Positions 41,838 through 51,961 of a stretch of DNA of 64,000 nucleotides are shown here, piece by piece; the stretch's first letter is position 1, and every line of letters starts with the position of its first letter. A program made the translations under genes and the position numbers. The notes beneath the pieces are model-generated. The model was not told the DNA's origin. It searched no databases and worked only from the letters and a program-made list of their open reading frames with translations. The DNA is from Escherichia coli. GTDB lineage: Bacteria; Pseudomonadota; Gammaproteobacteria; Enterobacterales; Enterobacteriaceae. Location: assembly GCF_011045215.1 (NCBI RefSeq), contig NZ_CP049201.1. The stretch is one strand, 5' to 3'.

Positions 41838-42833
41838 ATGAACGATAACGTTTTGCTCATAGGAGCTTCCGGATTCGTAGGAACCCGACTACTTGAAACG
41901 GCAATTGCTGACTTTAATATCAAGAACCTGGACAAACAGCAGAGCCACTTTTATCCAGAAATCACACAGATTGGCGATGTTCGTGATCAACAGGCACTCG
42001 ACCAGGCGTTAGCCGGTTTTGACACTGTTGTGCTACTGGCAGCGGAACACCGCGATGACGTCAGCCCTACTTCTCTCTATTATGATGTCAATGTTCAGGG
42101 TACCCGCAATGTGCTGGCGGCCATGGAAAAAAATGGCGTTAAAAATATCATCTTTACCAGTTCCGTTGCTGTTTATGGTTTGAACAAACACAACCCTGAC
42201 GAAAACCATCCACACGACCCTTTCAACCACTACGGCAAAAGTAAGTGGCAGGCGGAGGAAGTGCTGCGTGAATGGTATAACAAAGCACCAACAGAACGTT
42301 CATTAACTATCATCCGTCCTACCGTTATCTTCGGTGAACGCAACCGCGGTAACGTCTATAACTTGCTGAAACAGATCGCTGGCGGCAAGTTTATGATGGT
42401 GGGAGCAGGGACTAACTATAAGTCCATGGCTTATGTTGGAAACATTGTTGAGTTTATCAAGTACAAACTGAAGAATGTTGCCGCAGGTTATGAGGTTTAT
42501 AACTACGTTGATAAGCCAGACCTGAACATGAACCAGTTGGTTGCTGAAGTTGAACAAAGCCTGAACAAAAAGATCCCTTCTATGCACTTGCCTTACCCAC
42601 TAGGAATGCTGGGTGGATATTGCTTTGATATCCTGAGCAAAATTACGGGCAAAAAATACGCTGTCAGCTCAGTGCGCGTGAAAAAATTCTGCGCAACAAC
42701 ACAGTTTGACGCAACGAAAGTGCATTCTTCAGGTTTTGTGGCACCGTATACGCTGTCGCAAGGTCTGGATCGAACACTGCAGTATGAATTCGTTCATGCC
42801 AAAAAAGACGACATAACGTTTGTTTCTGAGTAA
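41838..42833 (+). CDS. gne: NAD-dependent sugar epimerase of the Gne/Gnu type (UDP-GlcNAc / GlcNAc-PP-Und 4-epimerase)
   Basis: 331 aa; Rossmann motif LLIGASGFVGTRL; sits between wcaM and galF, as I recall for the O55/O157-type gne gene. Confidence 0.8.
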   Translation: MNDNVLLIGASGFVGTRLLETAIADFNIKNLDKQQSHFYPEITQIGDVRDQQALDQALAGFDTVVLLAAEHRDDVSPTSLYYDVNVQGTRNVLAAMEKNGVKNIIFTSSVAVYGLNKHNPDENHPHDPFNHYGKSKWQAEEVLREWYNKAPTERSLTIIRPTVIFGERNRGNVYNLLKQIAGGKFMMVGAGTNYKSMAYVGNIVEFIKYKLKNVAAGYEVYNYVDKPDLNMNQLVAEVEQSLNKKIPSMHLPYPLGMLGGYCFDILSKITGKKYAVSSVRVKKFCATTQFDATKVHSSGFVAPYTLSQGLDRTLQYEFVHAKKDDITFVSE

Positions 42834-43075: not shown

Positions 43076-43969
43076 ATGACGAATTTAAAAGCAGTTATAC
43101 CGGTAGCAGGTCTTGGGATGCATATGTTGCCTGCCACTAAGGCGATTCCCAAAGAGATGCTACCGATCGTCGACAAGCCAATGATTCAGTACATTGTTGA
43201 CGAGATTGTGGCTGCAGGGATCAAAGAAATCCTCCTGGTAACTCACGCGTCCAAGAACGCAGTCGAAAACCACTTCGACACCTCTTATGAATTAGAATCT
43301 CTCCTTGAACAGCGCGTGAAGCGTCAACTGCTGGCGGAAGTACAATCTATCTGTCCGCCGGGCGTGACCATTATGAACGTGCGTCAGGGTGAACCTTTAG
43401 GTTTAGGCCATTCCATTTTGTGTGCACGACCCGCCATTGGTGACAACCCATTTGTCGTGGTGCTGCCAGACGTTGTGATCGACGACGCCAGTGCCGACCC
43501 GCTGCGCTACAACCTTGCTGCCATGATTGCGCGTTTCAATGAAACGGGCCGTAGCCAGGTGCTGGCAAAACGTATGCCGGGTGACCTTTCTGAATACTCC
43601 GTTATTCAGACCAAAGAGCCGCTGGATCGTGAAGGCAAAGTCAGCCGCATTGTTGAATTTATCGAAAAACCGGATCAGCCGCAGACGCTGGACTCAGACA
43701 TCATGGCCGTTGGTCGCTATGTGCTTTCTGCCGATATTTGGCCGGAACTTGAACGCACTCAACCTGGTGCATGGGGACGTATCCAACTGACTGATGCCAT
43801 TGCTGAACTGGCGAAGAAACAGTCCGTTGATGCCATGCTGATGACTGGTGACAGCTACGACTGCGGTAAAAAAATGGGCTATATGCAGGCGTTTGTGAAG
43901 TATGGACTGCGCAACCTGAAAGAAGGGGCGAAGTTCCGTAAAGGGATTGAGAAGCTGTTAAGCGAATAA
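43076..43969 (+). CDS. galF: UTP-glucose-1-phosphate uridylyltransferase regulatory paralogue GalF
   Basis: 297 aa, matches GalF. Confidence 0.95.
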
Positions 43970-44227: not shown

Positions 44228-44266
44228 CAGTGCTCTGGTAGCTGTAAAGCCAGGGGCGGTAGCATT
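44228..44266 (+). promoter_or_regulatory. JUMPstart element with variant ops site (GGCGGTAGCATT) in the O-antigen cluster leader
   Basis: cagtgctctggtagctgtaaagccaggggcggtagcattg, about 350 bp upstream of the first O-antigen gene; last ops positions differ from canonical GGCGGTAGCGTG. Confidence 0.75.
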
Positions 44267-44618
44267 GTTCTTGATATTTTTAAGTATAAAAATGACACAT
44301 AAAAATAAAATAATTAGTTATCGGTATGTTTTTAATTGTGTTATTATTGAAAAATATCACCATTAATTATTTAATGCGATAAAGGCCAAATAAATCACTC
44401 ATTTATTTCTACATAGGATAGGGGACTATCAGATGGGAATTAAATAAAAATCCAAGTGCTAAATATTTCAATCTTAAATTCCATTGTAAAAAGTTTAAGG
44501 GATTTTATTCTAAAAAAGAATTGGATGAATTGAAAGTTATTTTGAGCTTAATTTATTAAACTTGAAGTTTTTTTACTGAGTTTTTCTGAAAAATAATTTA
44601 TTGTTAATGGAGCCATAT

Positions 44619-45638
44619 ATGTCAATTTTAGTTACCGGAGGTTGTGGTTATATAGGTGTCCACACAATTTATACGTTAATTTCTCAGGGCTACGATGTTA
44701 TTGTACTGGATAACCTGACTAACTCATCAATAGAGTCATTAGAGAGAGTCAAGTTAATGACAAATCATAACATACCCTTTTATAAAGGAGATGTGGGGAA
44801 TAAAAAAATATTGGTAGACATATTCAATGAGCATCAAATAAAAGCGGTTATGCATTTTGCAGGCTTGAAATCAGTAAGTGAATCTATAAAAAAACCGATT
44901 GAATATTATTCAAGTAACGTAATGCAAACGTTATCACTAATATCTACAATGATAGAGTATAACGTAAAAAGCTTTATCTTTAGTTCATCTGCTACTGTAT
45001 ATGGTAAACCAAAGTTATGCCCTATAAATGAAACTCATCCTATTGGCAAAACTACAAATCCTTATGGAACATCAAAATTAATGATGGAGTTAATGTTGTC
45101 TGATTTGTGTAATGCATATGATGATTTTAATGTGACAATTTTACGATATTTTAATCCAATTGGTGCTCATGAATCAGGTAATATTGGTGAACATCCAAAC
45201 GGTATACCAAATAACCTATTTCCTTATCTTACAAAAGTTGCTATTGGAGAGTATCCTTATTTAAAAGTGTATGGTTGTGATTACCCAACGTCTGATGGTT
45301 CTGGTGTTCGAGATTATATTCATGTAGTTGATCTTGCTGAAGCACATGTAAAAGCTTTATCAAAAAATTCAGAGTCGACTGGGCTAAAAATTTATAATTT
45401 AGGAACCGGAAAAGGATATTCTGTACTCGAAGTTATAGAAGCTTTTGAAAAGATAACTGGAATCAAAATACCATATAAAATTATGCCTCGAAGGGATGGT
45501 GATGTTGCGGAGTGTTGGTCTGATAGCACGAAGGCAAATGATAAATTAGAATGGAAAGCAAACAGAGAATTATATGACATGATTAGAGACGCTTGGAATT
45601 GGCAATCAAAAAATCCTCATGGTTATGATAATACATGA
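44619..45638 (+). CDS. UDP-hexose 4-epimerase, GalE family
   Basis: Start taken at ATG 44619 after ggag RBS (track begins at TTG 44601); ILVTGGCGYIG Rossmann motif and YGTSK catalytic motif; AT-rich codon usage. Confidence 0.8.
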   Translation: MSILVTGGCGYIGVHTIYTLISQGYDVIVLDNLTNSSIESLERVKLMTNHNIPFYKGDVGNKKILVDIFNEHQIKAVMHFAGLKSVSESIKKPIEYYSSNVMQTLSLISTMIEYNVKSFIFSSSATVYGKPKLCPINETHPIGKTTNPYGTSKLMMELMLSDLCNAYDDFNVTILRYFNPIGAHESGNIGEHPNGIPNNLFPYLTKVAIGEYPYLKVYGCDYPTSDGSGVRDYIHVVDLAEAHVKALSKNSESTGLKIYNLGTGKGYSVLEVIEAFEKITGIKIPYKIMPRRDGDVAECWSDSTKANDKLEWKANRELYDMIRDAWNWQSKNPHGYDNT

Positions 45639-46003
45639 TGTTATAGTATATTCAATGAATATAATTTATGCTTTGGAGTAAAAGTTGTCACAGCGTTTTC
45701 TTGCAGAACTAAGATGTTTTTAGCATAATTAGACACAGAATTAAAAATATTATCAGGCCGTATCAGTACATATCTTCAGTATGCACTATCATATATTAAT
45801 ATGAGAAAATATTTGTATTTAAAATATGATGTTCTAATAAGATTAAATTAACTGCCTAGGATATTAAAAGCTAATTTGGACTAGCTTTATTAGATAAGTA
45901 AATCTAACAAAATATTACTATGTCCGATATGTTATACCACTATTAATGACATCATGTAATATTATTTTAATAAACTATTTTTTGATCGCAGAGGTAATTA
46001 TAA

Positions 46004-46399
46004 ATGAGAAGAGTTATCACCTTTGGAACATTCGACGTGTTTCATATTGGACATGTTAATATATTAAAAAGGGCGAAGGAGTTTGGTGATTTGCTGATTG
46101 TGGGAGTTTCATCCGATTCATTAAATTTTTCTAAAAAACAGCGTTATCCAATCTATAGCCAGGAGGAGCGCATTGAGATTATATCCTCACTTAAGTTTGT
46201 AGATCATGTCTTTATAGAAGAATCTTTAGATCTTAAGTTAGAATATATTAGAAAGTATGAGGCAAATTTACTTGTAATGGGAGATGATTGGAAGGGCAGA
46301 TTTGACTGGGTTAAAGATGAGTGCGAAGTTATTTATTTGCCCAGAACACCATCGATATCAACTACCGAGATTATAGAAATTGTCCGGAGAATAAAATGA
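46004..46399 (+). CDS. Glycerol-3-phosphate cytidylyltransferase (TagD/TarD-like; makes CDP-glycerol)
   Basis: 131 aa; ITFGTFDVFHIGHVNIL (HxGH nucleotidyltransferase motif) and ...MGDDWKGRFDW...EVIYLPRTPSISTTEI, closely resembling Bacillus TagD. Confidence 0.85.
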   Translation: MRRVITFGTFDVFHIGHVNILKRAKEFGDLLIVGVSSDSLNFSKKQRYPIYSQEERIEIISSLKFVDHVFIEESLDLKLEYIRKYEANLLVMGDDWKGRFDWVKDECEVIYLPRTPSISTTEIIEIVRRIK

Positions 46400-50951: not shown

Positions 50952-51238
50952 GGGACATTGTTTAGATGTGCAAGGTGGAAATGTATCAAAGAAAATTGTA
51001 GTTACTACAGTAACAGTTACTTTGTAAAGTATATTTCGGTAAAACCTGCAATAACCAAGGGCGCTAAACTCCCTAACAACTCCGCTAATGGAATTAGAAT
51101 TAGAGAGTGACGAGTTTAAATATGAGAGTTTAGGGTAATAGAACAAATTTTTAAGTTTATAGAGTAAGAACAGATTAAGTTAAGTTTGCTTATTTTATAA
51201 TAAGCTCTTTCTTAAACCATATATAGTATTATCTACAA

Positions 51239-51961
51239 TTGAGTGATATCAAATTGAATATTGAGATCGGTTTATCAGCGCTGAATTCAGGAATTTATAA
51301 AATTAAATTTCGTAATGATTATAATTATCTTATTATTCATCAGATTACTGATGAATGTGATTACTCTGATTATGTGGCATCTTTCCCTGAAAATGTTAGA
51401 TACATATCTTCATATGAGTCTGGGTTGTCCAAAAGTCGAAATATGGCCATTGAAAATGCAAAATACGATTATCTTTGGTTAATGGATGATGATATGGAAA
51501 TAGATGATGCGGCTTGGGATTATCTGACGAAATTTATTAGTGATTATAAAAATAGTCCTTTGCTGGTTGTTTCTCATTCATTGGCAAAAAAGTATAATAA
51601 TGAAAAAGAGAGGATTAAAAGATTGAATCCTATAACTGCTGCGGGAATTTGTTCTGTAGATATGATATTAAAAATTTCAGCACTGGACGGTATTAGATTT
51701 AACTCAGATTTTGGGTTAGGAGCTAAATATCCTTCCGGTGAGGAATATATTTTTGCATGTGATTTGATGAGAGCTGGAAAAAAAATATATAAATCTAATA
51801 AAATTTGCTCGAATCATCCTGACACGACTTCTAGTGATAAAACATATCCAAATAAAGACGCTTTTAGTACGAAGAAGAAAATGTTTAAAGTCGCAAATGG
51901 GAAATACTTAGGGAGCATTTTGTATATTGCTTTTGTTGTCAAAAAATTACTATATAAATAA
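51239..51961 (+). CDS. Putative glycosyltransferase family 2 (possible TTG start)
   Basis: 240 aa; DxD-like motif in KYDYLWLMDDDMEIDD; ORF opens right after an in-frame stop at 51224 and first in-frame start is TTG 51239, so start is uncertain. Confidence 0.55.
   Translation: MSDIKLNIEIGLSALNSGIYKIKFRNDYNYLIIHQITDECDYSDYVASFPENVRYISSYESGLSKSRNMAIENAKYDYLWLMDDDMEIDDAAWDYLTKFISDYKNSPLLVVSHSLAKKYNNEKERIKRLNPITAAGICSVDMILKISALDGIRFNSDFGLGAKYPSGEEYIFACDLMRAGKKIYKSNKICSNHPDTTSSDKTYPNKDAFSTKKKMFKVANGKYLGSILYIAFVVKKLLYK

Follow-up and report, generated by a model that had tools for sequence, protein, structure and literature searches.

A non-coding gap in the Escherichia coli O81 O-antigen operon is probably junction DNA of a galE insertion

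The 365-bp stretch between galE and the tagD-like gene of the Escherichia coli O81 O-antigen operon, which is poor in open reading frames (ORFs), is probably junction (scar) DNA of a galE insertion, with no function of its own and no regulatory role. The gap occupies positions 45639–46003 of the window, by which we mean the whole 64,000-nucleotide stretch of DNA that was analysed. When the window is compared with other O-antigen clusters, homology to four relatives that lack galE (L003, L006, L029 and L031) is lost after JUMPstart and regained just before tagD. The initial annotation had suggested a recombination seam at which a glycerol-phosphate module was joined to the cluster. The seam is borne out by the breaks in homology and by the incongruent genes on its two sides, but the direction of the event has to be corrected, as galE, and not the glycerol-phosphate module, appears to be the newcomer.

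The locus thus provides a concrete case, dated by its context, of an O-antigen cluster gaining a nucleotide-sugar gene. A Gne-like galE and its non-coding flanks would have landed just behind JUMPstart, ahead of the first gene of a cluster whose remaining parts are common to Citrobacter and Pseudocitrobacter. The feature is of an ordinary and already recognised kind, and its importance outside O-antigen genetics is small.

Layout of the O81 cluster

The window is a piece of E. coli chromosome that carries the wca (colanic-acid) genes, gnu (41838–42833), galF (43076–43969), the O-antigen cluster, gnd, ugd, wzz and his. The wzx and wzy genes of the cluster bear the RefSeq label 'O81 family', and the structure and cluster of O81 were reportedly the subject of a 2018 study by Zdorovenko et al. 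The cluster runs in the order JUMPstart, galE, gap, tagD-like gene, wzx, CDP-glycerol glycerophosphotransferase, glycosyltransferase, wzy and three further glycosyltransferases. The features that bear on the gap are as follows.

44228–44266, plus strand: JUMPstart with the ops motif GGCGGTAG (44255–44262); Rfam RF01707, 55.2 bits against a gathering score of 35
44269–44618, plus strand: non-coding leader 5′ of galE, 350 bp, O81-specific; left flank of the putatively acquired segment
44619–45638, plus strand: galE, 339 amino acids, the putatively acquired gene; NCBIfam TIGR01179, 443 bits
45602–45644, plus strand: left arm of an inverted repeat, comprising the last 12 galE codons, the stop and 6 nt more
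45639–45675, plus strand: first 37 nt of the gap, with a weak alignment to the 12-codon 3′ coding extension of O37 galE
45676–45940, no strand assigned: orphan core of the gap, without detectable homolog, ORF, RNA family, repeat family or stable structure; read as probable scar DNA
45946–45989, plus strand: right arm of the inverted repeat, mostly native tagD leader plus an 8-nt O81-specific insertion
45958–46003, plus strand: native tagD leader, common to galE-less relatives, with the Shine-Dalgarno sequence AGAGG at 45990–45994 (9 nt before the ATG)
46004–46399, plus strand: tagD-like glycerol-3-phosphate cytidylyltransferase gene, the first of the tagD-wzx-glycerophosphotransferase module; TIGR01518, TIGR00125

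The limits of the gap are exact, with the galE stop TGA at 45636–45638 and the tagD ATG at 46004. The profile matches support the GalE-like and tagD-like labels that the two neighbours had been given from sequence; the tagD product scores 134 bits against TIGR01518, under the equivalog cutoff of 165, and is above the cutoff for the adenylyl/cytidylyltransferase domain TIGR00125. The gap had also been described as AT-rich and devoid of any ORF of meaningful length, and both descriptions hold. Its GC content is 24.7% (A 138, T 137, G 49, C 41), a composition that is unexceptional in a cluster that is 27–35% GC throughout. Two ORFs of at least 30 amino acids touch it: a 31-residue ORF with a GTG start on the minus strand (45641–45736) and the longest found, of 37 residues (45946–46059), which overlaps tagD out of frame. 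The gap is without a RefSeq feature in all 10 of the complete E. coli genomes in which it is present. By these measures the gap is an ORF-free stretch between co-oriented genes of an O-antigen cluster.

From galE to the last glycosyltransferase gene, the eight junctions measure 365, 72, −17, −4, −11, 302, 50 and −4 bp, four of them overlapping and two lying at 50–72 bp. The earlier description of the other junctions as tight or overlapping is therefore accurate for most of them, but it omitted a second long non-coding gap of 302 bp. This second gap (50952–51253, 30% GC) separates wzy from a GT-A glycosyltransferase gene. Relatives have intergenic space at that place too (136 bp in L003, for example), the sequence of which is non-alignable, and homology blocks with relatives break exactly at the edges of 50952–51253.

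Distribution of the gap sequence

The gap was found in 10 of 5,426 complete E. coli genomes, all of them O81, at 98.1–100% identity, and a blastn search with a word size as small as 11 returned no match elsewhere in the same 5,426 genomes. A 20-mer from the gap centre was absent from 100,044 species-representative genomes (one per species). In JGI metagenomes the same 20-mer was present in one true O81 contig, and four more matches were chance 23-mers from an unrelated organism. Searching plasmids with the segment gave matches that were confined to galE, with no counterpart of the gap. The 350-bp leader was likewise unmatched in other E. coli genomes, plasmids and related loci, and homology between the window and nearly all E. 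coli ends at about 44263–44266, immediately past JUMPstart. As a single-copy, O81-specific sequence, the gap could be used as a marker in annotation and molecular serotyping.

One locus, L012, had the appearance of a variant with a 93% identical TagD and a longer gap. It proved to be O81 DNA (99.2% identity) with assembly indels, and we set it aside.

Homology to galE-less relatives breaks at the gap

The closest non-O81 relatives of TagD and Wzx belong to clusters that share the O81 gene order from tagD on. We compared four such O81-family clusters, from Pseudocitrobacter faecalis (L003), a metagenome contig (L006), Citrobacter sp. (L029/L030) and L031. In all four, tagD comes immediately after wcaM-gnu-galF-JUMPstart, and the genes between galF/JUMPstart and gnd, from tagD as far as the last glycosyltransferase gene, are orthologs of those in O81. 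Unlike O81, the Citrobacter (L029), Pseudocitrobacter (L003), L006 and L031 clusters lack galE, the 350-bp leader and any equivalent of the gap. Their DNA is similar to the window across galF and JUMPstart, and from about 44268–44269 on nothing matches. Homology resumes ~8–45 nt upstream of the tagD ATG, in blastn blocks that begin between 45965 (the position for L029) and 46002, and past that point the relatives are colinear with the window at 64–70% DNA identity.

The last ~45 nt of the gap, TATTTTAATAAACTATTT..CAGAGGTAATTATAA-ATG, which include the Shine-Dalgarno sequence AGAGG, are common to L029 and L006, indicating that they are the native tagD leader. Alignment with these two clusters gives the common sequence TATTTTAATAA(A)CTATTT...CAGAG..AAT..TAAATG, within which O81 has 8 extra nucleotides, TTTGATCG, at about 45981–45988. 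When the gap and the leader were compared with the JUMPstart–tagD spacers of the relatives by Smith-Waterman alignment against dinucleotide shuffles, only these last ~45 nt of the gap were significant. The DNA that is extra in O81 thus amounts to ~1.7 kb and consists of the 350-bp leader, galE and most of the gap.

In all five genes compared, O81 is nearest to L006 (tagD 86%, wzx 68%, gpt 68%, GT 65%, wzy 74%), and L003 is more distant from O81 than L006 in the same five. One gain of the galE segment on the way to O81 therefore calls for fewer events than several losses would and is the most parsimonious history, its polarity being judged from parsimony and the identity-based relatedness of only a few clusters.

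The genes on the two sides of the gap disagree in their relationships. GalE is nearest to that of O37 (80%), and TagD is nearest to those of galE-less or otherwise unrelated clusters (82–87% identical to L003, L006 and L002 versus 77% to O37 TagD), indicating that the genes either side of the gap have different histories. A break in homology and flanking genes with different nearest relatives therefore coincide at this position. The tagD-wzx-glycerophosphotransferase module is present in O81, O100, Citrobacter, Pseudocitrobacter and L002; on these alignments the module is the conserved resident core, and galE with its non-coding flanks is the putative added piece.

Tight junctions in other clusters show that a long junction is not a property of tagD, which follows rfbC across 13 bp in O100 and an SDR epimerase gene across 14–19 bp in L002 and L013. 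A long non-coding junction before tagD was seen only with the galE lineage found in O81, at 365 bp in O81 and 523 bp in O37. The adjacency of an epimerase gene and tagD in L002 and L013 was considered as an instance of the same galE–tagD module and rejected, the upstream SDR epimerase being only 25–27% identical to O81 GalE.

Origin and probable specificity of galE

At 80% amino acid and 80.7% DNA identity, E. coli O37 carries the nearest relative of O81 galE, and the block common to O81 and O37 is essentially galE alone, spanning 44581–45675 at most. This outer limit comes from relaxed-scoring blastn (44581–45675 against L007 376–1470); default scoring ends at 45631, so the 37-nt extension into the gap is weak. 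The O37 gene encodes 351 amino acids against 339 in O81, a difference of a 12-codon 3′ extension. Other members of the galE lineage, at 71–72%, lie near the 3′ end of other clusters with a GT4 gene 22 bp downstream, and the lineage therefore holds different positions in different clusters.

Comparison of residue 299 with the E. coli GalE chains in the PDB showed that O81 GalE has Cys299 where E. coli GalE has Tyr299. The O81 protein scores better against the Y299C mutant chain 1LRK than against the wild type, and an AECWS motif is common to the GalE homologs of O81, O37 and L009. This change at the residue-299 'gatekeeper' permits UDP-GlcNAc/GalNAc epimerisation. The presence of Cys299 makes a Gne-like identity probable, and the galE product of O81 is probably a Gne-like or bifunctional 4-epimerase, not a plain GalE.

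The gnu gene (Und-PP-GlcNAc 4-epimerase) lies between wcaM and galF in the window, as it does in Citrobacter, Pseudocitrobacter and O37 relatives. Its presence implies GalNAc as the initiating sugar, and gnu and galE together would place two different 4-epimerases at the locus.

A long gap at the same position in O37

The O37 cluster (NZ_AP022215, L017) resembles that of O81 in its local layout: after JUMPstart come galE, of one lineage in both, a non-coding gap that is long and rich in AT, and finally tagD and wzx. To judge by the title of Shashkov et al. (2016), as cited in PMC7685785, the O37 O antigen also contains glycerol phosphate. The full order is JUMPstart, an ISAs1 pseudogene with a group II intron, a spacer of ~88 bp, galE, a 523-bp gap (29% GC), tagD and wzx(O37). 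Unlike O81, O37 has this ISAs1 pseudogene, split by the group II intron, directly 5′ of galE; the remaining cluster is also unrelated to that of O81, and TagD is only 77% identical.

The gaps of O81 and O37 show no similarity to one another (Smith-Waterman z = −1.07 against dinucleotide shuffles), and the O37 gap is restricted to the two O37 genomes in our collection. Neutral flanks would be saturated at 80% coding identity, so that two gaps homologous past recognition cannot be told from two of independent origin. The presence of a long gap at the same place in O37 could mean that the spacer has been kept for a reason.

The ISAs1-family transposase pseudogene of O37 (L017 6322–9329) lies between JUMPstart and galE, its intron consisting of reverse transcriptase and maturase fragments, and the IS end falls within ~20 bp of the start of O81/O37 homology. 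Two hairpins can be seen by eye in the O37 gap (L017 10474–10996) shortly after galE, CTGTATAAAGAGTTTATACAG and GACGCG...CGCGTC. The latter, with a T-rich run after it, may be what is left of a terminator from the donor context.

Alternative explanations for the gap

The initial annotation had suggested an internal promoter or a small RNA here. Horizontally acquired DNA of high AT content often harbours promoters in E. coli, and the gap is very AT-rich. A functional promoter in the gap would give tagD and the genes after it a source of transcription separate from the JUMPstart promoter, for example to offset polarity of the galE insertion. O37 too has a long gap at this position, and the plus strand does carry 9/12 matches to the sigma-70 consensus at 45796–45825 (TTAATA-18-TAAAAT), 45801–45830 and 45625–45652. 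However, promoter-like sites are not enriched in the gap, where 12 were counted and 16.7 ± 4.4 were expected from dinucleotide shuffles; the best in-gap matches reach 9/12, all of them without an extended −10. Neither O37 nor any relative conserves the candidate region, and no constraint on it is detectable. Furthermore, tagD in the relatives is expressed straight from the JUMPstart promoter, and ops at 44255 is intact in O81. We therefore consider an internal promoter unlikely, though a weak one may escape an analysis of sequence alone. A little less likely still is that the gap is a decayed gene, once located between galE and tagD or 3′ of the donor galE and encoding, for example, a GT4 glycosyltransferase. 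A GT4 gene does follow galE by 22 bp in the 71–72% GalE relatives, remnants of genes have been recorded as anomalies in 9 of 178 clusters (PMC7685785), and the frame that runs on from galE contains only 5 stops in 121 codons, compared with ~11 estimated from base composition. This shortage of stops is non-significant once six frames are allowed for, and protein-level searches gave no trace of a gene. With both GT4 proteins encoded downstream of related galE genes as queries, tblastn reached a best E-value of 0.65 in the gap; a blastx comparison of the gap with the 349 ORFs of all related loci gave nothing under E = 0.96; a Pfam search of its six frames yielded a single match, which at 14.5 bits fell short of the cutoff of 25; and a phmmer search of 1.84 billion proteins with the frame +0 translation returned one compositional match with no matched stretch.

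A different kind of function, as RNA, is raised by an imperfect 44-nt inverted repeat that exactly brackets the gap (45602–45644 / 45946–45989, two repeat pairs on one anti-diagonal), the right arm of which ends 1 nt before the tagD Shine-Dalgarno sequence. The gap could then be a cis-acting RNA, in which a long-range helix couples translation or stabilises the mRNA, or it could encode a small RNA. The arms form the closing helix in both the minimum free energy (MFE) and the centroid fold, the 8-nt O81-specific insertion partly creates the repeat and adds to the outer helix, and all known substitutions among O81 haplotypes lie outside the arms. The Smith-Waterman score of the repeat, 18, was reached in 3 of 1,000 shuffles and in 7 of 300 in a broader test, but the test is post hoc. 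Fold stability is ordinary, both for the whole bracketed region (z = −0.81) and for the gap alone on its two strands (z = +1.05 and −1.19), and the counterpart region of O37 has no comparable inverted repeat. The O81 haplotypes are nearly identical and offer no covariation, and the left arm, as conserved galE coding sequence common to O37, is constrained by coding anyway. The suggested small RNA fares no better, as the gap contains neither an Rfam family at threshold nor an intrinsic terminator that would define one. An RNA function in either form is thus very improbable. The repeat could have arisen by chance, be left over from the rearrangement or represent a long-range RNA helix. We give little credence to a selected helix that would loop out the ~300-nt scar and place the galE stop beside the tagD Shine-Dalgarno sequence, restoring translational coupling or protecting the untranslated stretch; only if the repeat proves functional would it pose a new mechanistic question.

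Several other candidates were set aside. The only Rfam match under permissive settings was to CRISPR-DR6 (45831–45870, 25.7 bits against a gathering score of 39), which is sub-threshold, single-copy and outside any array and was treated as chance. A MITE or IS was rejected for a sequence that is single-copy and found only in O81 among the 5,426 genomes, with repeat arms that are galE coding sequence and native tagD leader. No tRNAs or tandem repeats were found in the gap.

Proposed history and expression of the insertion

Under the reading that we favour, junction DNA of a galE insertion, the ancestral O81-family cluster would have consisted of galF, JUMPstart, a spacer of ~120–230 bp, tagD, wzx and the genes from CDP-glycerol glycerophosphotransferase onward. 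In the O81 lineage, a segment of ~1.7 kb would then have inserted into the JUMPstart–tagD spacer and partly replaced it. The inserted segment would comprise the 350-bp leader, the Gne-like galE and ~300 bp of trailing non-coding DNA, and the original spacer would survive only as the last ~45 nt with the tagD Shine-Dalgarno sequence. The gap may have been carried in with galE, generated at the insertion or derived from a gene that decayed past recognition; these three origins cannot be told apart by sequence comparison, as the gap and the leader match nothing and the donor segment was not found.

RfaH/ops antitermination is an established route for reading through untranslated stretches in long polysaccharide operons. 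Like such operons, O81 has JUMPstart and ops intact, 350 nt before the start of galE. This copy, at 44228–44266 with ops at 44255, is the sole one in the cluster, and no second ops or JUMPstart lies inside the gap; the part played by RfaH in the following scheme is predicted. The gap would be transcribed passively within a long RfaH/ops-dependent operon transcript begun upstream of JUMPstart, with RfaH loaded at ops carrying RNA polymerase through galE and the untranslated 365 nt into tagD. Ribosomes would stop at the galE stop, and tagD would be translated independently from its own AGAGG. An untranslated stretch of this length would be tolerated because the gap contains no intrinsic terminator, its RNA is low in C (11%) and hence a poor Rho substrate, and the RfaH-modified polymerase would resist Rho.

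Liu et al. (2019, FEMS Microbiol Rev, PMC7685785) counted 68 anomalies in 178 E. coli O-antigen clusters, of which 14 were non-coding regions, 9 were gene remnants and 23 were mobile elements, and read such anomalies as marks of relatively recent genetic events. Like the non-coding and gene-remnant anomalies of E. coli, Shigella and Salmonella clusters (PMC7685785; Liu et al. 2008), the O81 gap is ORF-free, lies in a co-directional operon and sits at a break in homology, and on sequence grounds it fits this known class. It differs from the class in that a mobile-element trace is undetectable in O81 itself, neither the gap nor the leader having any IS or pseudogene similarity; junctions of this kind often, but not always, retain the trace of an agent (IS, H-repeat or gene remnant).

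Variation among O81 genomes

Between the window and the most divergent O81 genome (H10, NZ_CP148366), the gap carries 7 substitutions in 365 positions compared with 21 in 8,430 for cluster coding sequence (Fisher p = 1.1e-4). The gap is thus the most divergent segment of the cluster between O81 haplotypes, a result that depends almost entirely on H10; three further O81 haplotypes have 0–1 gap changes. Five of the seven H10 substitutions fall in the core (45676–45940), and all seven are in the gap outside the inverted-repeat arms. Four lie within 24 bp (45672–45695) and could represent one multi-nucleotide event or micro-conversion; counting these four once gives p = 0.018. The haplotype data are thin and give no hint of constraint on the gap.

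A further O81 isolate (L027 5001–6773, GCA_050938835.1) has single-base deletions in tagD that yield a 147-residue product with an altered C-terminus. Its wzx carries three single-base deletions and no wzx is called, so that the isolate is either an O-antigen-defective variant or a case of assembly errors.
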